Source of the DNA: Melioribacter sp.
GTDB taxonomy: Bacteria > Bacteroidota > Ignavibacteria > Ignavibacteriales > Melioribacteraceae
NCBI GenBank assembly: GCA_023250955.1
Contig: JAHEZQ010000022.1
Location: forward strand, 4,958 to 68,957
Direction: 5' to 3'
DNA: 64,000 nucleotides
The position numbers and the translations under genes were made by a program. Every line of letters begins with the position of its first letter. The stretch's first letter is position 1. Shown here one piece after another: positions 4,196 through 55,992 of the stretch. The notes below the pieces were generated by a model. The model made no database searches, had not been told where the DNA came from, and saw only the letters and a list, made by a program, of their open reading frames with translations.

Positions 4196-4540
4196 ATGGA
4201 AAATCAATTTGGAGTAACCGGATTTATATTTAACAATGATCACCAATGGGAAAAATTTGGTGAAGGAATAAGAAGAAAAATATTGGGTTATGAAAAAAAT
4301 ATTATGCTTGTAGCTGTTGAATTTAAGAAGGACGCTGCAGCAAACATTCATAAACACCCACACACACAAATTAGTCATATAGTAAGAGGATCGTTTGAGG
4401 TCACAATAAATGACGAAAAGAGAATTATGAAAGCAGGCGATGTATTTCTTGTGCTGCCAAATCTTGATCACGGTGTTACTGCACTAGAAGAAAGTATGTT
4501 AGTTGATGTGTTTACACCTTACAGGGAAGATTTTGTTTGA
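4196..4540 (+). CDS. cupin domain protein
   Basis: 114 aa. HKHPHTQISHIV...G...LPNLDHGV resembles the two-motif cupin metal site. RBS AAGGAGA lies upstream. Confidence 0.6.
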   Translation: MENQFGVTGFIFNNDHQWEKFGEGIRRKILGYEKNIMLVAVEFKKDAAANIHKHPHTQISHIVRGSFEVTINDEKRIMKAGDVFLVLPNLDHGVTALEESMLVDVFTPYREDFV

Positions 4541-4544
4541 TTTT

Positions 4545-4835
4545 TCATTTCCTTAGTTGATCTGATATTGTATCAATCCTATCTACAATTCCCACAATTA
4601 TACTTCTTAACGGCTCACGATTTTTTAATTCAAGTATATCCATCGTACTTCTTCCTTCAGACATAACAAGTACTGTATCTCCTTCACCTGCACGTACAGT
4701 ATCTATCGCAACCATTGTTCCTGATTTAAATTTGCCGTCAGGTGAGATTGGTCTGACGATCATAATTTTTTTGTTTCTATATGAATCGTGTTTAATTGTA
4801 GAAACAATACTTCCAATTACTTTACAGAGAATCAT
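4545..4835 (-). CDS. EutN/CcmL-family microcompartment vertex (BMC-P) protein, paralog 3
   Basis: 96 aa. MILCKVIGSIVST...VAIDTVRAGEGDTVLVMSEG...IVGIVDRID matches the EutN/CcmL pattern. Its start overlaps the upstream paralog by 4 nt. Confidence 0.8.
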   Translation of the reverse strand: MILCKVIGSIVSTIKHDSYRNKKIMIVRPISPDGKFKSGTMVAIDTVRAGEGDTVLVMSEGRSTMDILELKNREPLRSIIVGIVDRIDTISDQLRK

Positions 4836-7557: not shown

Positions 7558-7952
7558 GCCGCTCCTACGGAGCTGATGTTTTATATGTTATGTTTTGTTA
7601 TCTAGATTTCGCCCCTACGGGGCTAAATGAATAAAGATTAATTAATCTATAGTCAGTGCCTTTAGGCACGACATATTGGTAGAGCCTTTAGGCACGACAT
7701 ATTGGTAGAGCCTTTAGGCACGACATATTGGTAGTGCCATAGGCATGAAATATTGGTAGTGCCATAGGCATGAAATATTGGTAGAGCCTGTAAGCACGAA
7801 AAATTGGTAATGCCGTAGACACGAAATATTGGTAGTACCGTAAGCACGAAAAATTGGTAGTGTCGTTGACATGAAATATTGGTATTACCGTAGGCACGAC
7901 ATATTGATAATAAGGTAGTCATGGCATTTAAATAGCTCCGTTAGGAGCGGCA
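7558..7952. repeat. REP-like hairpin region downstream of the RAYT-like gene
   Basis: Short GC hairpins GCTCCTACGGAGC (7562-7574), GCCCCTACGGGGC (7611-7623) and GCTCCGTTAGGAGC (7935-7948). The outermost 18-19 nt (7558-7575 tgccgctcctacggagct and 7934-7952 agctccgttaggagcggca) are reverse complements apart from one loop base, and they bracket the tandem array. Confidence 0.8.
7656..7909. repeat. tandem array of ten 25-26 bp hairpin-containing units
   Basis: Unit starts at 7656, 7682, 7708, 7734, 7759, 7784, 7810, 7835, 7860 and 7885. Consensus is GTGCC-(T)TTA/ATA/GTA-GGCAC GA(C/A)ATATTGGTA. Each unit has a 4-5 bp stem and the units abut with no spacers. Confidence 0.9.
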
Positions 7953-9695: not shown

Positions 9696-9911
9696 ATGAC
9701 GGAACATAAAATGAAACCGATTTGGTTCTTTGTAGGGCTAATTTTATTGGTAATGGGCGGAATAATATTTCTAACCGGAATATTTCAGATTATTATTCCA
9801 TCTGAACGGGTAACAGTACTTAGTAACACGCATCCTAATATTTGGTGGGGTGCTGTAATGTTTTTATTCGGCGGATTTATGTTTTGGAAAACAAGAAAGC
9901 AGACTGTGTAG
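9696..9911 (+). CDS. small two-TM membrane protein
   Basis: 71 aa with two hydrophobic helices. AGGAGA RBS, 14 nt after the symporter stop. Confidence 0.45.
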   Translation: MTEHKMKPIWFFVGLILLVMGGIIFLTGIFQIIIPSERVTVLSNTHPNIWWGAVMFLFGGFMFWKTRKQTV

Positions 9912-9950
9912 TTAATATCACTTGCTATCACTGCTGGACTGTGACAGCTT

Positions 9951-10144
9951 GTAAACAACGGCGTTGCAACTAAACCGCCGCCCAGAACAGCAATGCAACT
10001 TTGATAAACTAACGCCAATGATTTTATAAATACTTTTTTATTGCAACCTACCTTTAAGAGCAACCAACTTTTACAATGCAACTTTATTACCTAATAAATG
10101 CCGCTATGTTTAAAGCGGACGGCTTGAAGAACTTGTTAGCTGCA
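9951..10144 (-). repeat. attC-like long junction element, copy 1 (3' frame of locus A)
   Basis: In gene orientation: TGCAGCTAAC AAGTTCTTCAAGCCGTCCGCTTTAAACATAGCGGCATTT ... GGGCGGCGGTTTAGTTGCAACGCC GTTGTTTAC. Homologous to 53296-53487 (last 39 nt 34/39 identical) and more distantly to 54786-54959. Confidence 0.75.
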
Positions 10145-10780
10145 TTCACCTTTAGATTTTACTTTTTCATCAAGTAACGCTTTATAAGTCAATTTTTCCT
10201 TTATTAATTCAGCTATTATTTTTTGTGAACTTTCGTTATTTGCGGCAACATTTGATACCTCAAATTCTGCTATTCGTAGCGTTGGATTTAAACCATTTAC
10301 TGATGGTAACAAATCTCTAAAACAATCAAGATATGCCCTTTGAGCTGTTCGTCCACCAACAAAATTAAAATCAACAGTAGTTTTTGATTTTCTATACTTA
10401 TCAGCTTCAACTTTGTGCACATTACAAAGTAATTTGTATTTTTTTATATCGAAAGCCGTAGCCAGTTCATTGGGATAACAATCAAGAGTTTTTAACCGAT
10501 ATGAACTAAAATGCTGATATTCATCAAACTCAAAAATGAAATTATAATCACCACCGAAATATGCATCACAATCAAGTGACACATTTTTTTTGTTCTGATT
10601 TGCTTTTATATCACCTTTCAACGTATCGAATATTTTTGAAATAACTTGGAAATGATGTCCAAAATATTCTTCGCTATGTTTATTTATGAACCAAGGAAAA
10701 GTAATATTCGTTTGTGCTGACACATTTAATACTTTTGCGACTATTTCTGTTATTAATTTTTGTTTATCACCAACTGGCAT
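10136..10780 (-). CDS. hypothetical protein, possible restriction-endonuclease-like fold
   Basis: 214 aa. LDCDAYFGGDYNFIFEFDEYQH resembles the D...E-x-D-x-x-H arrangement of Vsr/DUF559-like nucleases (weak, by eye). GAGG RBS. Same module as the DUF2130-like gene. Confidence 0.35.
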   Translation of the reverse strand: MPVGDKQKLITEIVAKVLNVSAQTNITFPWFINKHSEEYFGHHFQVISKIFDTLKGDIKANQNKKNVSLDCDAYFGGDYNFIFEFDEYQHFSSYRLKTLDCYPNELATAFDIKKYKLLCNVHKVEADKYRKSKTTVDFNFVGGRTAQRAYLDCFRDLLPSVNGLNPTLRIAEFEVSNVAANNESSQKIIAELIKEKLTYKALLDEKVKSKGECS

Positions 10781-10844
10781 ATTACCTCAAAATTTTTAAG
10801 TGAGAATATTTTTTTAATATCACACGTTTACGATAAATTGTAGC

Positions 10845-12104
10845 CTATTCTAATTGTTTATTGCTGTCTTCAAGTTGTTTAACTTCTTGAGTAAGTGAAT
10901 CAATTGCAATTCCATCTACTCGACCCCAAAAATTAATTACACTTTGCTTGGCTTGGAAAATATGCGCTTCTCTTTCTGCAAATCTTTTCAATGATTCTTC
11001 TTTCTCTTTTTGTAGTGATTTATCCATTTTTTTAAATGCATCAAGAATTCCAATTATATGATTTTGAAAATCACTGCTTCTTAGATAGTCGTAAAGCATT
11101 TCCATTTTTGTGCCCTTATCAGTTTGCGAAGCTAAAGCCGAATATTGTTTAATTAATCCATCTCTTAATAGCGTTGTCATTATTTTAATATCATTTAAAT
11201 TACAAACCCATACTCCATCTCTGAAGTGTGTTTCTTTATTATCCGTTGGCATTGTTTGCGAAACTATTACACAAATGTCCGCCTTAACTCGACGACCATC
11301 ATCTTTGAGTTTTGAAACCCAATCTTTTCCAAATGTCTGAGTTTGTTTTCTTTCATATAGTATAATCCCACTTGGCTGACCAACATTATTTTTCACAACT
11401 TGAAGAATATCTGCACCGGTAACACCGGAAGGAACATCTTTTATCTCATCAATAGGAAAGCTATATCTTAGAAAATCTCGAAGCTCGATTTCTTTAACTT
11501 CACCAGATAATTTGTTTGAACCTTGCTCTAGTTTTGTTTGAGCATCTTCAAGTCGTTTGTTTAAATCATCAATTAGTTTATCTCGTTTTTGAAGCTCTGT
11601 CTTGCTCTTTTCAGTCTCGGTCACTTTTATTTTTTCTTTTTCTTGCAAAAGAAGTTCATTGAATTTCTTTTCGGCATCAGCCTCAATCTTATCTTTTAAT
11701 TCAGATTTCTCTCTTTGAACCCTTGCTAGTTCGCCCTTTGTTTTGTTTAGCTCTTTTACTTGTTCTGACTTTTGCTGCAATTCAGTTTCAAGCGCTTTTA
11801 GTTGTTCTGATTTTTCTTCATCAATTTGTTGACGAACAGTTTTTTCGATTTTTGTTTTTTCTATCTTGAGTTTACCTTGAACTTGTTTTTCAACAAGTTC
11901 AGTAAGTTTTTCCTTTTCTTTTTCTAATTCTTTTTTGTCGGATTCAATTTCTTGAAACTTAGATTGAAGTTCTTTCTCTTTTTTGACAATTTTTTTGTCA
12001 TAGTCTTTCTTAATTTGTGTTTCAAGTTGGTCATAAAGAACATCATTAACATTAATTGCAGCACCACATTCTGGACATTTGATAAAATTATCTTTCTCGC
12101 TCAT
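10845..12104 (-). CDS. DUF2130-like protein: CxxC knuckle, long coiled coil, C-terminal PD-(D/E)xK nuclease-like domain
   Basis: 419 aa. N-terminal KCPECG, about 200 aa of K/E-rich heptad-like sequence, then GADILQVV...GIILYERK (D...ExK). Paralog of 53513..54751. Confidence 0.7.
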   Translation of the reverse strand: MSEKDNFIKCPECGAAINVNDVLYDQLETQIKKDYDKKIVKKEKELQSKFQEIESDKKELEKEKEKLTELVEKQVQGKLKIEKTKIEKTVRQQIDEEKSEQLKALETELQQKSEQVKELNKTKGELARVQREKSELKDKIEADAEKKFNELLLQEKEKIKVTETEKSKTELQKRDKLIDDLNKRLEDAQTKLEQGSNKLSGEVKEIELRDFLRYSFPIDEIKDVPSGVTGADILQVVKNNVGQPSGIILYERKQTQTFGKDWVSKLKDDGRRVKADICVIVSQTMPTDNKETHFRDGVWVCNLNDIKIMTTLLRDGLIKQYSALASQTDKGTKMEMLYDYLRSSDFQNHIIGILDAFKKMDKSLQKEKEESLKRFAEREAHIFQAKQSVINFWGRVDGIAIDSLTQEVKQLEDSNKQLE

Positions 12105-12124
12105 AATAATGACTCCAATTTAAT

Positions 12125-12149
12125 TGCAGCTAACGGCTTGTTATAGCGC
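12125..12149. other. short module junction TGCAGCTAAC-GGCTT-GTTATAGCGC
   Basis: The right inverted-repeat arm of the DUF2130-A module and the left arm of the OLD module are separated by only 5 nt. Confidence 0.8.
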
Positions 12150-12152
12150 TAC

Positions 12153-13934
12153 TTAAGAATATATTTTAATTATCTTTTCCTTAAAACCTTGTTTAATAAC
12201 AAAATCATCCGCATCAACTTTCTTCAAAGCAAAGAATGGTTTACTTTTATTAGACTTATCAGTTATTCCAATTTCTTCTTCTATATCATTTTCTAATATG
12301 ATAGTGCTACCGTAATTTTTATCTATTGCATCTTCTATACGTTTGGAAGATTTATCAGCACTTGCAATACCATCTGGTTTTTTATCTGCTTGATGGTCTT
12401 TGTCATAAATTGCTATATAGGGTAAGCGGAATTTATTTAGTAATTCTATATATGGAACAAAAGCGTCTTTACTTCCACATTCAATCAGAGTATAATCATA
12501 CCTAAAAATATTTAGTTGTTTTGCTAAGAAAGGAATAACTGTTTTATCGGAAGGACCTTCAACTAAAACAACCTTTTTTGAGAAAAATAATTCACTTCTA
12601 TCCGGATTAAACCAGTGGACAAGATTAAAATTCTTCTTGTCATCGACATCTGAAAATAAGTCTGTTTTGCATTGAAATATTGTTGTGCCAGCGGTATCAT
12701 TTTCTTTTTTCACAATACAAATTGACTTATACATATTCATATCAATAAATGAACTTGAATGAGTGCAAAGCAATATTTGATTGTCAGAAGCAGAAAGTAA
12801 AACCAACGATGAAAACAACTCTCTTTGTGCTTGCGGATGCAAGTATAACTCTGGTTCTTCAAAAATGAAATACGCGGAATTAGACGTTTGCCTAATAGGA
12901 CGATCTTCCTCTGGCGTGGTAGTAGCATTTTCTCTTTCTTCTCTAATAATATTTGCCCAAGTTTTAATTAACGCAAATATTAGTGCCCTTTGTAAGCCGT
13001 GCCCCTTTCTTGAAATATCTGTTTTAATGCCATCATTTACCCAAACAGAAGTTCCAACTTTGAAAACATCATCAAAATTAGGTGGAGTTATTTCAACATC
13101 TATTTTAGTATTCCAAGATGATAATTCTCGTTCGAGACGTTGTTCAAATAGATTTAGTTCTGGTGGACGAGCTGTGTTTGCATTTCCATTCTCATCAATT
13201 TTATTTAATGAGTTTACCATTGTAACGATTTTATTCTTTGCGTCTTTGTAATCTTGGTTTGTCTCAGACAATTTTTGAATTACAGAAGAATATAATTGGT
13301 TAAAGAGTGTGCTTCCTTTCAGATTCAATTCTTCTGAAGCCGACTTGACGGATGGGATATAAAACACTGAACCAAATATTCCTTTTGCAACATTTTTAAG
13401 ACCCAAAAAGTTGGTAGTCTCTAATTCGTAAGAAAAAGTAATAGCAGTATGATTTTGTTCAATGTATTGGTTTATAGCATTAATAAATATTTCTTTAGTG
13501 ATTCTTCCATCGGCAGGGATTAAATTATATAAAGGTAGCTGACTTGCCGTTTCTCTTTTTAAATAGTTTGAAACATTTTCTTCTTTCAGCCATTCTTCAT
13601 TCGGATTTTGTATGTAACCATTATAAGAAAATTGACCAGATTTATTTGCGGTTTTTCTAACCCTAATTTCATTTTCAGATGTCAGATATTTCTTAAACTG
13701 ATTCTTATCAAAATCATCCAAATTAGAAAATGTTACTTCGACAAATAATTCATCAGAATTTTGGTTGAAATCAAGTTCATCATGTTTGATTTCTCCAAAG
13801 AAATACAACAAGGCGGAAAGTAGATTTGATTTACCGTGATTATTTTGACCGATGAAAATCATTACTTTTTCGTAATCAAGTTCAATCTCTCTTATAGAAC
13901 GCCAATTTTTAATATGAACATTTTTAATAACCAT
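12153..13934 (-). CDS. OLD-family nuclease (ABC-type ATPase fused to Toprim domain), P2 Old-like class 1 architecture
   Basis: 593 aa. Walker A GQNNHGKS, Walker B/D-loop FIFEEPELYLHP, H-loop CTHS. C-terminal Toprim VVLVEGPSDK ... IAIYDKDH. No helicase partner gene. Confidence 0.8.
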   Translation of the reverse strand: MVIKNVHIKNWRSIREIELDYEKVMIFIGQNNHGKSNLLSALLYFFGEIKHDELDFNQNSDELFVEVTFSNLDDFDKNQFKKYLTSENEIRVRKTANKSGQFSYNGYIQNPNEEWLKEENVSNYLKRETASQLPLYNLIPADGRITKEIFINAINQYIEQNHTAITFSYELETTNFLGLKNVAKGIFGSVFYIPSVKSASEELNLKGSTLFNQLYSSVIQKLSETNQDYKDAKNKIVTMVNSLNKIDENGNANTARPPELNLFEQRLERELSSWNTKIDVEITPPNFDDVFKVGTSVWVNDGIKTDISRKGHGLQRALIFALIKTWANIIREERENATTTPEEDRPIRQTSNSAYFIFEEPELYLHPQAQRELFSSLVLLSASDNQILLCTHSSSFIDMNMYKSICIVKKENDTAGTTIFQCKTDLFSDVDDKKNFNLVHWFNPDRSELFFSKKVVLVEGPSDKTVIPFLAKQLNIFRYDYTLIECGSKDAFVPYIELLNKFRLPYIAIYDKDHQADKKPDGIASADKSSKRIEDAIDKNYGSTIILENDIEEEIGITDKSNKSKPFFALKKVDADDFVIKQGFKEKIIKIYS

Positions 13935-13954
13935 TTGTTCCTCAAATTAAATAT

Positions 13955-14181
13955 GCGCTATAACTATTAATTAACCCGCCAAAAAGAAGGCGGACAAGCC
14001 CGCCAACGGATAGCATGGTGGAAGTTGTTTATCTACTTGTAAATTATTTGTTTTTATTTCATTACAAAAAGCAGAAAAGGAAAATCTATTTTCTTTGTTC
14101 TATGTATCTAAACAAAGTACCCCATTTATAGAAGCGTTTTTGGTACTAATTTAACTTAGTGTAAAAGAAAATTTTAGTCAA
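13955..14181 (-). promoter_or_regulatory. conserved 5' frame of locus A: promoter-like boxes plus structured leader
   Basis: Gene orientation: TTGACT (14181-14176), 17 nt, TAAGTT (14158-14153). The leader has stems AGTACC/GGTACT (14116-14147) and CTTTGTT/AACAAAG (14093-14117). It ends GGCGGGTTAATTAATA-GTTATAGCGC. Homologous to 55795-55992. Confidence 0.6.
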
Positions 14182-14422
14182 CCGTTTTCTTGACCCAGCC
14201 AAAAAGATCCGTCAAAAAGATGCCGGACAAGCGGCGGGCAAGCTCACCCGCCCGGATTAACCGGGCACCCTCTCCTTTGTAAGGAGAGGATGGGGTGAGG
14301 TTCTTAGTTGTAAAGACGGGATATATCCCGTTTCTACGTTTTAATTTGTTGTGTTATATCATGGAATAATTGTAATCAAAACAGATATTAAATAAGTTGT
14401 AATAACTAAAATTTAAGAAAAT

Positions 14423-53295: not shown

Positions 53296-53487
53296 GTGGT
53301 AACGACGGGGTTTTTAAGCCGCCGCTCATAACTGCAATGCCGCTTTGAAAAACCTACGCCAATAATTATTTACAAATGTGTTTTGTCCACTATATTCAAA
53401 AAGCAACTAAATTTTGCAGAGCTACTTTATAACAACACAAATGCCGCAATGTTTAAAGCGGACGCCTTGGAAAACTGGTTATACCGC
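53296..53487 (-). repeat. attC-like long junction element, copy 2 (3' frame of locus B)
   Basis: Gene orientation: GCGGTATAAC CAGTTTTCCAAGGCGTCCGCTTTAAACATTGCGGCATTT ... GAGCGGCGGCTTAAAAACCCCGTC GTTACCAC. Homologous to 9951-10144. Confidence 0.75.
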
Positions 53488-53512
53488 CTTCGTATTAAAC
53501 AAGAACAGAAAA

Positions 53513-54751
53513 TCATTTTTCCAATTCTTCGATTCTAATAAATTTACTTTTTTCAGTAAGTAACAACTTAGATTTTTGTTCAATTCTGTTTTGAATTAAG
53601 TCCTTAAGTTTATAGTCAATTATACCAATATCGGAAAATAGATCACGATAAATATGATAACGTTTCTCCCACGTCTTCTTGTGAGATGAAATTTCCACTT
53701 TGAGATCTCTTCCTAGTTCCATTAGCTGACCAGCGACATCATTCATTTTATTGTTATAATCATTGCTTGATAGATAATCATAAACACGTTGAACAGCTTT
53801 TTGTTTTGCCTCGTTTGACATTTTCAGCAATGCTATTTTTACAAGACTTTCACGGAGAGTATAAGTTATTGGTTCAAGACTTACTGGACTTATAACAAAG
53901 ACGGTATTTTCCACAAAGTAATATTGTTTCTTTGAAGGGAATGCATTTGTAACCAATATTGCAAAATCAGCTTGGCGTATTTTGCGAGCTTCTTTAGCTT
54001 GTTCGATATGATTTTTGCTAAATGTTTTTACTTTTTTGCATTCGTAGACAATTTTCCCAATTTCTTTTTCTTGTTCGAGAACTATCTGAATAATGTCGCC
54101 AGCTTTTCCAGGATGTTCAAATTTGTCTTGGGGAAAAAGCTCCTTGAGCTTTGCAAGAAGTTTATCTTCTTCTAATAAACCTTCAATTTGTGGAGTTATA
54201 CCTTTCTCTATTTGCTCTTTCAGTTTTTTGATTTCGTCATTAGCTTGTTCATATTTCTTAGCAGATACTTTGAGACTGTTTTCGAGCTGAGACATTTTGT
54301 TTTTAGTTTTTTTAAGGTCGTCTTGCTGCTTCTTGAATTCTTTTTTCTGAGTCTCAACTCCTTTATCAACTCCTTTTTTAATCTCAGTCTTCAATTTATG
54401 GTTGAAAGATTTTTCTAATTGATTTCGCTGATTTTTCATTTGCAACGAAGCTTTCTTTGCTTGTTCAGTCAAAATGCGTTTAGAATCACGCAATAATTTT
54501 GCTTGTTGTTTCTTAAATTCATTCGCTTGTCCCTTAACTTGATCTTTATAAACTTTTTCTTGCTCTTTAAGTTTCTTCCTCTCGGCTTCCAACTTCTTTT
54601 TATTAAGTTGTTCTTGTGCTTTCATTTTCTTCTGTTCAGCTACAAGATGTTTTATATGTTCTTGTTTGTCTTTCCACAAGCCAAGAGCTTTATCATATTC
54701 AGTTTCTGTCAAAGGTTTTCCACAAACTGGACACTTTAATGTTCGTTCCAT
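53513..54751 (-). CDS. DUF2130-like protein (CxxC knuckle, coiled coil, PD-(D/E)xK-like C-terminal domain), paralog B
   Basis: 412 aa. KCPVCG, long K/E/Q-rich coiled coil, GDIIQIV...GKIVYECK (D...ExK). AAGGAG RBS. Confidence 0.7.
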   Translation of the reverse strand: MERTLKCPVCGKPLTETEYDKALGLWKDKQEHIKHLVAEQKKMKAQEQLNKKKLEAERKKLKEQEKVYKDQVKGQANEFKKQQAKLLRDSKRILTEQAKKASLQMKNQRNQLEKSFNHKLKTEIKKGVDKGVETQKKEFKKQQDDLKKTKNKMSQLENSLKVSAKKYEQANDEIKKLKEQIEKGITPQIEGLLEEDKLLAKLKELFPQDKFEHPGKAGDIIQIVLEQEKEIGKIVYECKKVKTFSKNHIEQAKEARKIRQADFAILVTNAFPSKKQYYFVENTVFVISPVSLEPITYTLRESLVKIALLKMSNEAKQKAVQRVYDYLSSNDYNNKMNDVAGQLMELGRDLKVEISSHKKTWEKRYHIYRDLFSDIGIIDYKLKDLIQNRIEQKSKLLLTEKSKFIRIEELEK

Positions 54752-54785
54752 ATTTAGACTCCTTTACATTTTAGTAAAAACATAT

Positions 54786-54959
54786 GCGGTATAACGGCGT
54801 TACGGTTAAGCGGACGCCACGAAGTGTCGGATACCAACAACATGATTTATTGTTTATAAATTTCATTTGCACAAATGTCGAACAAAAACCAAATCAACTA
54901 AAACTACAAATACCACGACCGACTACAGCGTTCCGCATGAGACGCTTGTTATACACAAA
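54786..54959 (-). repeat. attC-like long junction element, copy 3 (between the two modules of locus B, diverged)
   Basis: Gene orientation: TTTGTGTATAAC AAGCGTCTCATGCGGAACGC ... GGCGTCCGCTTAACCGTAACGCC GTTATACCGC. It shares end motifs and central blocks (caaatgt, caactaaa) with copies 1 and 2. Confidence 0.65.
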
Positions 54960-54964
54960 CTCAA

Positions 54965-55786
54965 TTAACTATTTGCATATTCAACACACTTTGCTCTTAA
55001 TTCTGATATTTCATTAAGTGCTACTGGATTTTTGGCGAGATTAATTAATGGAAGATATTTTCTAATTAGATAACTCTCCATATTCTCAAAATCACCAGCA
55101 AATTCTATCCAGTTAACTACTAAGTTTGTATTAATCCAGTTGATAATGGTGGATTCGTTTCCTTTGTTGAACTTATAATTACGTTTGTTAGAATGGTTTT
55201 TCAATGAACCTTTTATTGGAAGGAAACCTAAAATAGCACCAAGGCTTCTAAAAAACGTTCCGTGACCCCTCGCCCTTAATTCTTGATTTAAAAAACGAGT
55301 ATTTAGACTTTCTGTCGCAATACCAATGTAAATGATATTGTGATTCCGTTTTTTAAGATGTTCGTTAAATGGGGCGGGAATTGAATCTTTATTTTTAATT
55401 CTGATACAATATATTCCAGGAACAGAGGGCACTTTTTCATCAATAGTATTTGCATCAATATAGTTGTCGGAATTAAATAAATATTTTTCCAGCTCTTTTG
55501 AATCAACAGAATTTTGAAAATCAACTTTGGGAGGATGTTCATTGATTAATTGAACAGGTGAATTTTTAGATAATCCAGAAATAACTTTTAAAATGACAAT
55601 ATTTCCTTTGCGATCAAATAAATGTGAATATTTTCTAGTTCTTCCGTGAATTTGAAATGCTGTAATTAAAGAGCCATCTTTCTTTTCATACCACTTACTT
55701 TTATTTAGTAGGTCTGCAATTTTTTGTGTGGTCATCGAGTTTTTATTCTCAGCTAATACTTTTATTATTGCCTCGTGAAGTGTCAT
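54965..55786 (-). CDS. HARE-HTH-like winged-helix domain fused to GIY-YIG-like nuclease domain
   Basis: 273 aa from ATG 55786 (RBS AAGGAAG); see the rejected 55858 start. N-terminus MTLHEAIIKVLAENKNSMTTQKIADLL...HLFDRKGNIVIL resembles HARE-HTH. C-terminus VPGIYCIRI...NIIYIGIA...R...E...N resembles GIY-YIG. Confidence 0.6.
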   Translation of the reverse strand: MTLHEAIIKVLAENKNSMTTQKIADLLNKSKWYEKKDGSLITAFQIHGRTRKYSHLFDRKGNIVILKVISGLSKNSPVQLINEHPPKVDFQNSVDSKELEKYLFNSDNYIDANTIDEKVPSVPGIYCIRIKNKDSIPAPFNEHLKKRNHNIIYIGIATESLNTRFLNQELRARGHGTFFRSLGAILGFLPIKGSLKNHSNKRNYKFNKGNESTIINWINTNLVVNWIEFAGDFENMESYLIRKYLPLINLAKNPVALNEISELRAKCVEYANS

Positions 55787-55794
55787 ATTCTTCC

Positions 55795-55992
55795 TTTGTG
55801 TATAACTATTAATTAGCCCGCAGCAGACTTCAACTCTTGGAATGTTATCTACCAACATTTATTTTGTTTTAATTAATTTGCAGACAGAAAAGGAAATCTA
55901 TTTTCTTTGTTCATATCTTCAAACAAAGTACCCCAATTATAGAAGCATTTTTGGTACTATCTCAACTTAGCTTAAAAGGAAATTGATGTCAA
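55795..55992 (-). promoter_or_regulatory. conserved 5' frame of locus B: promoter-like boxes plus structured leader
   Basis: Gene orientation: TTGACA (55992-55987), 17 nt, TAAGTT (55969-55964). Same two stems as in locus A. It ends GCGGGCTAATTAATA-GTTATACACAAA. Confidence 0.6.

Follow-up and report, generated by a model that had tools for sequence, protein, structure and literature searches.

Two loci with shared non-coding ends in a Melioribacter genome: probable short arrays of integron gene cassettes with long attC sites

A 64-kb stretch of DNA from Melioribacter sp. (contig JAHEZQ010000022.1; "the window" denotes the whole of this stretch) contains two loci, A and B, in which different genes are enclosed by similar non-coding ends, referred to here as the 5′ and the 3′ frame. 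Both loci are on the minus strand. Locus A lies between a symporter gene and galK, while locus B is bordered by a DUF2461 gene. The first gene of locus A codes for a protein of the OLD family (Pfam AAA_15 and OLD-like_TOPRIM; PADLOC Old with E 1e-71) and is followed by a DUF2130 and a DUF7255 gene. Locus B carries a gene for a protein with HARE-HTH and GIY_YIG_2 domains, followed by a second DUF2130 gene. The domain searches thus agree with the protein calls (OLD, DUF2130, HARE-HTH/GIY-YIG-like) of an earlier, sequence-only reading of the window. Assignment of the OLD gene to a Gabija system (GajA-GajB) was considered but rejected, as the GajA models match more weakly than stand-alone Old and as the neighbours are DUF2130 and DUF7255 genes, with no helicase.

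The likeness between the flanks of the two loci far exceeds background. By blastn, the 3′ flanks (9971-10138 and 53315-53481) are 74.6% identical over 169 nucleotides (nt; E 5e-25) and the 5′ flanks (14047-14181 and 55863-55992) 80.7% identical over 135 nt (E 8e-29). A further 21-nt block (13959-13979 and 55801-55821, 95%) is located immediately 5′ of the first start codons of both loci. The first gene of locus B most likely starts at 55786 and not at 55858, so that this block is non-coding in both cases. The window has a G+C content of 34%. Homologous non-coding ends had been claimed in the sequence-only reading, and this is borne out by the alignments, which also contain the block with 34 of 39 identical positions and the shared strings quoted there. 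The flanks are much more alike than the enclosed genes: the two DUF2130 proteins, already described as only distantly similar, share 25% identity. Beyond loci A and B, neither blastn nor a profile search revealed any further copy of the frames in the window.

The 3′ frame is an attC-type repeat of ca. 190 nt which belongs to a chromosomal integron of Ignavibacteria. This is concluded from its homologues, which follow each open reading frame (ORF) of integrase-linked arrays in relatives, and from matches to a hidden Markov model (HMM). In relatives L016 and L017 (74%), a 328-aa integron integrase is encoded directly after the DUF2461 gene, the same gene that borders locus B. The integrase from L016 (8180-9166) reaches 469 bits with NCBIfam model TIGR02249 (cutoff 265), and its homologues are named "integron integrase". 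Its gene, intI, is followed by small ORFs on the same strand, each of them trailed by a homologue of the 3′ frame. In L020, whose integrase is 84% identical to that of L016, the intI gene (328-1317) precedes a small ORF and an array; 3′-frame homologues fill at least nine successive spacers between the ORFs of this array, with E values down to 1e-43. An HMM of the attC family, built from 17 units, gives E values from 1e-30 to 1e-43 for the array repeats of the relatives. In the window, the model detects exactly three copies (nhmmer), at 10139-9956 (E 6e-43), 53482-53299 (E 5e-41) and 54952-54787 (E 5e-20). The third copy is located between the two genes of locus B. The pair of 3′ frames described in the sequence-only reading was thus incomplete, as it lacked this copy and a remnant of ca. 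24 nt (12126-12149) in locus A.

Most of the 17 units have a length of 187-194 nt, while that of cassette B1 has only 168 nt and two insertion-bearing units from L020 have 226 and 289 nt. (C/T/A)TAAC stands at the start of all 17, and the end reads ..C(G/C)(C/T)C-GTT with a variable purine-rich tail. The boxes follow the attC rule of R″ (RYYYAAC) and R′ (G|TTRRRY), although several of them depart once from the strict consensus (e.g. GTATAAC). The proposed fold consists of the R box and four short helices, with three conserved single-base bulges on the R″-side (5′) arm. Over 13 units, 93.9% of the cells in the 19 proposed pairs are standard pairs, and double compensatory changes occur in 9 of the 19 (e.g. 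GCAACT/AGTTGC, GCCGCT/AGCGGC, GCGCCT/AGGCGC, GCAAAT/ATTTGC; also CCGC/GCGG, CAGC/GCTG and CTGC/GCAG). None of 1,000 column shuffles exceeded 83%, and slid registers, over which a fold drawn by hand from these same sequences is favoured, did not exceed 45%. The bulged bases (C, A/G and A/T on the top strand, and hence G, T/C and T/A on the bottom strand) recall the G and T that are extrahelical in the bottom strand of classical attC sites. When the distal arms are joined they fold better than shuffles in seven of eight units (z down to −3.8, the value for the attC of B2), and for the attC of B1 the ends pair in the minimum free energy fold and in the centroid fold alike. The proximal 86 nt of the 3′ frame were considered as an attC site on their own, but this was rejected because they fold no better than shuffles.

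Several minor observations concern the attC units. The two enlarged units of L020 (7414-7703 and 10128-10351, with 289 and 226 nt) carry central insertions, one of which holds a long perfect palindrome (GGGCGTGAGATA...TATCTCACGCCC), and we conclude that the centre of the unit tolerates insertions. A 98-aa ORF (9785-10081, minus strand) and a 51-aa ORF (53383-53538, plus strand) of the window overlap attC sites; they are not conserved between the copies and are most likely not genes. Searches of Rfam, with the whole window at gathering thresholds and with both frames up to E 10, returned only a tRNA-Met and chance-level matches.

Because an attC copy (locus B) or a remnant of one (locus A) is found between the genes, each locus consists of two cassettes: A1 (OLD), A2 (DUF2130 and DUF7255), B1 (HARE-HTH/GIY-YIG) and B2 (DUF2130). 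The sequence-only reading had assumed a single cargo per pair of frames. It was correct in that the cargo differs, but the cargo of each locus is two units rather than one. Crossover in integrons takes place at G|TT, so that a cassette opens with the TTRRRY half of its own attC and its start is complementary, in reverse, to the R″ box at its 3′ end; this is the signature of a circular cassette. The signature was found in all 18 cassettes, with 6-11 contiguous matching nt at the start. The mean contiguous match is 9.2 nt with the R″ box of the cassette itself but 3.95 nt with those of other cassettes, and none of 10,000 permutations reached the observed value. For the cassettes of the window, the match extends over 9 (A1), 9 (A2), 11 (B1) and 9 nt (B2). 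At the locus A junction, it covers nine contiguous bases after the first base, and the R″ box of A2, GCAGCTAAC, is the reverse complement of the start of A2. In the remnant between A1 and A2, which was read directly from the sequence, ca. 170 internal bases of a normal unit are gone while both boxes match the ends of the partner cassettes. As a result of this internal loss, A1 and A2 are effectively fused.

Table 1. Features of loci A and B in the window. The vertical bar marks the crossover point.
Feature	Position	Strand	Details
Locus A 5′ frame core	14054..14181	-	TTGACT 14181-14176 -17- TAAGTT 14158-14153; overlapping TTAAAT -18- TATAAA
Locus A core hairpins		-	GTACC-N20-GGTAC; CTTTGTT-N11-AACAAAG (14117-14093)
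Terminator-like hairpin with T-run in A leader	13981..14004	-	GGCGGGCTTGTCCGCC TTCTTTTT
Locus A entry junction (attI-like)	13955..13974	-	TTAATTAATA-G|TTATAGCGC; G at 13964, A1 from 13963
Cassette A1	12134..13963	-	OLD ATPase-Toprim 12153-13934; R″ GCGCTATAAC 12140-12149; AAGCC; G 12134
Collapsed attC remnant	12126..12149	-	R″ GCGCTATAAC; AAGCC; R′ G|TTAGCTGC (12134-12126)
Cassette A2	9959..12133	-	start TTAGCTGC; DUF2130 10845-12104; DUF7255 10136-10780; own attC
attC of A2 (3′ frame A)	9951..10143	-	R″ GCAGCTAAC 10135-10143 to R′ G|TTGTTTAC 9959-9951
Locus B 5′ frame core	55858..55992	-	TTGACA -17- TAAGTT; TTGAGA -18- TATAAT; both hairpins as in A
Locus B entry junction	55798..55816	-	CTAATTAATA-G|TTATACAC; G at 55806
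Cassette B1	54795..55805	-	HARE-HTH/GIY_YIG_2 gene 54965-55786; own attC 54787-54952
B1 attC boxes	54948-54956; 54795-54786	-	R″ GTGTATAAC; R′ G|TTATACCGC
Cassette B2	53303..54794	-	start TTATACCGC; DUF2130 53513-54751; own attC
attC of B2 (3′ frame B)	53296..53487	-	R″ GCGGTATAAC 53478-53487 to R′ G|TTACCAC 53303-53296

Homologues of DUF2130 and genome matches assign the window to Ignavibacteriales/Melioribacter-like metagenome-assembled genomes (MAGs). Relatives with the core of the 5′ frame were collected by an exact-pattern scan, which yielded two metagenome contigs (L010, L011) and two contigs from species-representative MAGs (L012, L013). L011, L012 and L013 represent the orthologous symporter-galK interval, with flanking genes at 82-88% DNA identity. 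The 5′ frame has been kept in all three and the 3′ frame also in L012 and L013. The cargo of L011 is a TIR-NTPase (PDC-S60/ThsB-like) gene and a DUF1016 gene, that of L012 a PLD/DrmC-like nuclease gene and that of L013 a gene for an unknown protein of 272 aa. Beyond the 3′ frame, L012 codes for a 215-aa protein and a Gp49/HTH pair, and L013 for an ORF6N protein. A comparison of this interval had been proposed along with the sequence-only reading, and it reveals frames that are kept around cargo that differs. L010 provides a third chromosomal context, in which the 5′ frame is present and has a cytochrome c gene as neighbour. Orthologues of locus B were retrieved via the DUF2461 gene. In L014 (89% protein identity), this gene is followed by the 5′ frame (nhmmer E 2e-20), genes for a methyltransferase and a BsoBI endonuclease, an 88-aa ORF and AhpC, so that restriction-modification cargo is found behind the 5′ frame at the orthologous position. 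A more distant orthologue of locus B (L022-L024) carries other defence genes and has neither frame nor attC, which indicates that the position downstream of DUF2461 is variable in general.

Taken together, the integrase-linked homology, the covariation of the folded arms, the cassette-boundary signature and the turnover of cargo at orthologous sites lead us to consider it very probable that integron gene cassettes with attC sites make up loci A and B, each of which would be a short array of two. The proposal of a cassette platform or an insertion hotspot, as opposed to a recent duplication, is supported by the attC homology and by the cargo turnover. Each cassette would have the form TTRRRY...gene(s)...R″-attC-G and would be excised or inserted at G|TT by the tyrosine recombinase IntI, an action that would give each cassette a start complementary, in reverse, to its R″ box. 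The arms of attC would form an imperfect hairpin in which three bulged bases are conserved. The 5′ frame would drive transcription of the cassettes in the manner of the integron cassette promoter Pc, its G|TT junction would serve as an attI-like entry site, and different first cassettes would have been placed there in different lineages. Recombination is presumably carried out by an IntI which is encoded elsewhere in the genome, or was carried out by one in an ancestor. A complete integron, with intI beside the array, is found in L016 and L020 but not in the window. At locus B, attC sites occupy 54787-54952 and 53299-53482 while intI is absent, and the locus thus belongs to the arrays with at least two attC sites without integrase. 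Locus A, with one full attC site (9956-10139) and the 24-nt remnant, is formally a single attC site lacking an integrase (SALIN) or a borderline case of an attC cluster that has no integrase (CALIN). As there is no intI in the window, we regard both loci as small CALIN/SALIN-like arrays.

A number of points weigh against this assignment, in addition to the manner in which the fold was drawn. Neither intI nor an intI pseudogene was found in the 64-kb window (tblastn with the L016 IntI as query, best E 5.6). The promoter in the 5′ frame was recognised solely by its match to the consensus. No 5′ frame adjoins intI in L016, L020 or L021, and beyond ca. 12 nt at the junction the frame does not resemble the attI region of L016. 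Whole attC units fold no better than shuffles (z +0.1 to +1.0), the signal being confined to the arms. Classical attC sites have roughly 60-140 nt. The units described here are longer and have an unpaired centre of ca. 130 nt, while 20-100 nt have been given for the variable region of attC (PMC4889954). The usual size and a well-folded whole site are thus lacking, which are typical but not defining features of attC.

Cargo might also be exchanged by homologous recombination, e.g. upon natural transformation, in which case incoming DNA would replace whatever lies between the 5′ frame and either an attC or a core gene at the flank, the frames would be conserved mainly as portable homology arms, and no IntI would act in this genome. 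The frames are 75-93% alike in primary sequence between the loci and the relatives, and the 3′ frame at locus A of L013 is closer to the B copy of the window (83.7%) than to the A copy (75.5%), which suggests exchange. The lack of intI in the window fits as well, and transformation has been reported to drive cassette shuffling in chromosomal integrons (PMC12614218). However, homology arms explain neither why the parts were first joined exactly at G|TT, with cassette starts complementary to R″, nor why the hairpin arms covary. Cargo exchange of this kind is considered rather unlikely, and it would complement the integron mechanism rather than replace it.

The 5′ frame differs in kind from the 3′ frame, an attC site, and is not a second copy of it, so that the earlier notion of the frames as functional sites holds in a refined form. 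With nhmmer, seven copies of the 5′ frame were detected (E 2e-20 to 2e-38), which are distributed over six contexts or relatives. The core of ca. 100-130 nt is nearly invariant in the seven copies and all of them have a sharp outer edge at TTGAC. It contains conserved sigma-70-like hexamers, TTGAC(A/T)-17-TAAGTT and the overlapping pair TTGA(A/G)(T/A)-18-TATAA(A/T), and the B copy scores 11/12 in the consensus scan. Of the two hairpins in the core, the first (GTACC/GGTAC) has a compensatory variant, GCACC/GGTGC, in L010, while the second (CTTTGTT/AACAAAG) has invariant stems and variable loops. The terminator-like hairpin of the A leader is also present in L011 and L012 but absent from B, L010, L013 and L014. 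The frame ends with TTAATTAATA(G/A)|TT in A, B, L011 and L012, with TAAGTAATA(G/A)|TT in L010 and L013 and with TTATCTAA|TT in L014. The corresponding junction in L016 reads GTTAATAATAG|GTTAGGT. The G|TT junction precedes six different first cassettes, and cassette-specific sequence begins directly after it. Across the relatives, the 5′ frame occurs with different first cassettes in at least three chromosomal contexts, namely beside galK, beside DUF2461 and, as the third, beside the cytochrome c gene.

The 5′ frame is a promoter-like leader which would most likely supply transcription to the cassettes, similar to Pc. Whether it combines a working promoter with a functional attI-type entry site appears evenly balanced. 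A further proposal must be considered tentative, and we rate it as possible rather than likely: the 5′ frame may be a component new to integrons, an integrase-less "orphan platform" which unites a promoter and a structured leader with a G|TT site of the attI type, has been duplicated at several loci and is served in trans by a single integrase encoded elsewhere. If this were true, one genome would run a distributed integron with several independently expressed entry points for defence cassettes, and the hairpins, together with the leader terminator of some copies, could be a common regulatory switch for captured cassettes.

A rather unlikely alternative is that the 5′ frame is the tail of a promoter cassette without an ORF, or a promoter region that ends in a secondary site of the attG type, with cassettes arriving by recombination of attC with attC or with attG. 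Genomic GWT sites near promoters can receive cassettes through the action of IntI (bioRxiv 10.1101/2022.09.11.507474), and in no case was the 5′ frame found beside intI. In addition, GATAAACAAC in the A leader (14024-14033) is complementary over 8 nt to GTTGTTTA (9959-9952), the bases after the last attC, and the two look like a short palindromic site split by cassette insertion, but there is no equivalent in locus B. The base before the outer edge of the frame is G in A and L011 alone and A or T in the other copies, and no R″ box complementary to TTGAC.. occurs inside the frame. For the same two reasons, the 5′ frame was rejected as a cassette of its own. Also, the use of one identical junction by six cassettes suggests a preferred site rather than a chance one.

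The frames could further be duplicated regulatory regions, i.e. the promoter and terminator shared by paralogous DUF2130 operons and kept alike by selection or gene conversion. DUF2130 is indeed encoded in both loci, the 5′ frame is promoter-like and the 3′ frame has a weak terminator-like hairpin. We consider this very improbable, because the 3′ frame also occurs between the genes of locus B and after every ORF of the intI-linked arrays, and because it accounts neither for the covarying long-range arms and the cassette-boundary signature nor for the unrelated genes that are flanked in the relatives. Ends of a non-integron mobile element with a transposase in trans, such as a Tn7-like element or a derivative of IS200/IS605 resembling a miniature inverted-repeat transposable element (MITE) or a palindrome-associated transposable element (PATE), would fit two distinct hairpin-bearing ends without terminal inverted repeats and the Y1 transposase gene ca. 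4 kb from a DUF2130 cassette in L005, but can practically be dismissed, since no transposase is encoded in or beside any of the loci, the 3′ end is repeated in arrays beside intI, the boundaries obey the G|TT rule, and neither exact-pattern scans of viral contigs for both frames nor blastn of the frames against plasmids gave a match. A transposon with terminal inverted repeats was rejected separately, as there are no inverted repeats between the outer ends, no target duplication and no transposase gene in the loci.

With the integron assignment, the loci can be compared to known systems. A lineage-specific, homogeneous attC family which follows each co-oriented cassette is also characteristic of the Vibrio cholerae superintegron with its Vibrio cholerae repeats (VCRs). 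Further features are shared with sedentary chromosomal integrons: R″ and R′ boxes, bulged paired arms, G|TT boundaries, an intI gene that heads the array in L016 and L020, and cargo rich in genes of the defence or toxin type. Unlike these, the units are ca. 190 nt long with a large and poorly paired centre, the window is without intI, and in the relatives intI is encoded on the cassette strand, separated from the array by a small conserved ORF. That ORF (113-130 aa, no family match) is found in all three integrase-bearing relatives (L016 9184-9531, L020 1332-1724, L021 11015-11356), on the same strand directly 3′ of intI and before the attI region. The attI region of intI-bearing relatives contains repeated TATAGGAAAA / TTTCCTATATA motifs.

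Both CALIN and SALIN are common; most of them are small and have no intI pseudogene (PMC4889954; bioRxiv 10.1101/2022.09.11.507474). Two cassettes are the commonest size reported for CALINs, 95% of which have no intI pseudogene nearby (Cury 2016, Neron 2022, Loot 2023). Loci A and B resemble them in having two cassettes each and no intI pseudogene nearby. They differ in that the arrays, in three chromosomal contexts, are headed by a shared promoter-like leader of ca. 130-250 nt with a reused G|TT; in the CALIN/SALIN literature cited here we found no description of a shared head element of this kind. The promoter-like hexamers that read into the cassettes and the G|TT directly before the first cassette are reminiscent of attI with Pc, but the 5′ frame is not beside intI and is present at several loci. 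It is also unlike attG sites, being conserved, duplicated and repeatedly reused.

The cargo is, as predicted from sequence similarity, of the anti-phage type, with an OLD nuclease, a GIY-YIG nuclease and DUF2130 in the window and a TIR-NTPase, a PLD nuclease and restriction-modification genes in the relatives. Phage defence is among the known functions of cassettes in mobile and chromosomal integrons (bioRxiv 10.1101/2024.07.02.601719; PMC12614218). The loci correspond to such defence cassettes in that compact OLD, GIY-YIG, TIR, PLD, restriction-modification and toxin-antitoxin genes turn over between close relatives. In contrast to known cases, the host belongs to the Ignavibacteriota and not to the Proteobacteria, the defence role of the cargo is a prediction, and genes for DUF2130 and GIY-YIG/OLD-like proteins, which occur together elsewhere, are on separate adjacent cassettes.

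Outside integrons, too, DUF2130 genes adjoin genes of the nuclease type. In L004 (7001-9130), an A-type DUF2130 gene is followed by one for a GIY_YIG_2 protein with 43% identity to the B1 protein of the window, and in L007-L009 (L007 7001-10331) a B-type DUF2130 gene is followed by one for an OLD-like AAA_15 ATPase. In the window, such pairings occur on separate adjacent cassettes. This hints that DUF2130 and a nuclease may form a two-gene defence system, which is not listed in PADLOC. The frames were sought at the DUF2130 loci of other organisms (L003, L004, L007-L009) and are absent from most of them, so that they belong with the integron and not with DUF2130.

Integrons have already been reported in Chlorobi and Ignavibacteriae (PMC9024848), and the gene-capture system described here belongs to a known type, in this case in a phylum that has been little studied and with an unusual layout without integrase. 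Its only possibly new feature is the orphan 5′ platform. Less usual are the long and homogeneous attC family, the co-oriented intI of the relatives, the collapsed attC that fuses the OLD to the DUF2130 cassette and, above all, the duplicated head element without integrase. The analysis extends integron cassette arrays with an attC family of their own to MAGs of the Ignavibacteriota. It points to a clade in which genes of predicted anti-phage type turn over at fixed chromosomal sites via an integron route. It also provides boundaries at the cassette level for uncharacterised candidates (DUF2130, DUF7255, the 272-aa and the 215-aa protein). The head element, if functional, would bear on the origin of CALIN and SALIN and on the expression and exchange of cassettes without a local integrase.

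Some further observations concern the surroundings of the loci. The spacer between galK or another upstream gene and the 5′ frame contains G+C-rich palindromic repeats (window 14182-14330, L013 2356-2560, L012 6978-7047, L010 625-800) which are different in each relative. Types such as ctcaccc..ctctcctt acaa aggagag.. and cattgcgaa...gaagcaatc resemble repetitive extragenic palindromic (REP) elements or MITEs and differ even between orthologous loci. In L012 (3568-4650), genes for a Gp49/HigB-like toxin and an HTH antitoxin are found between a 71-aa gene and a 127-bp duplicate of its 3′ end (4524-4650), an insertion that appears to be accompanied by a long target duplication. A 73%-identity relative (L022 10733-18055, also L023 and L024) has a non-integron defence island 3′ of DUF2461, which comprises a nucleotidyltransferase pair, HTH/DUF4411, an M78 peptidase-HTH and a CAP12/PCTIR TIR protein; a run of short repeats of type TTTT(C/G)ACC is found in L022 directly after DUF2461, and there is an assembly gap. 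Finally, ca. 11 tandem copies of a 25-26-nt unit (TAGGCACGACATATTGGTAGAGCCTT-like) are located in the window at 7648-7934, where they separate a 153-aa ORF from the SSF symporter gene. They have no spacers and are thus unlike clustered regularly interspaced short palindromic repeats (CRISPR), and this stretch is missing from the syntenic region of L012.

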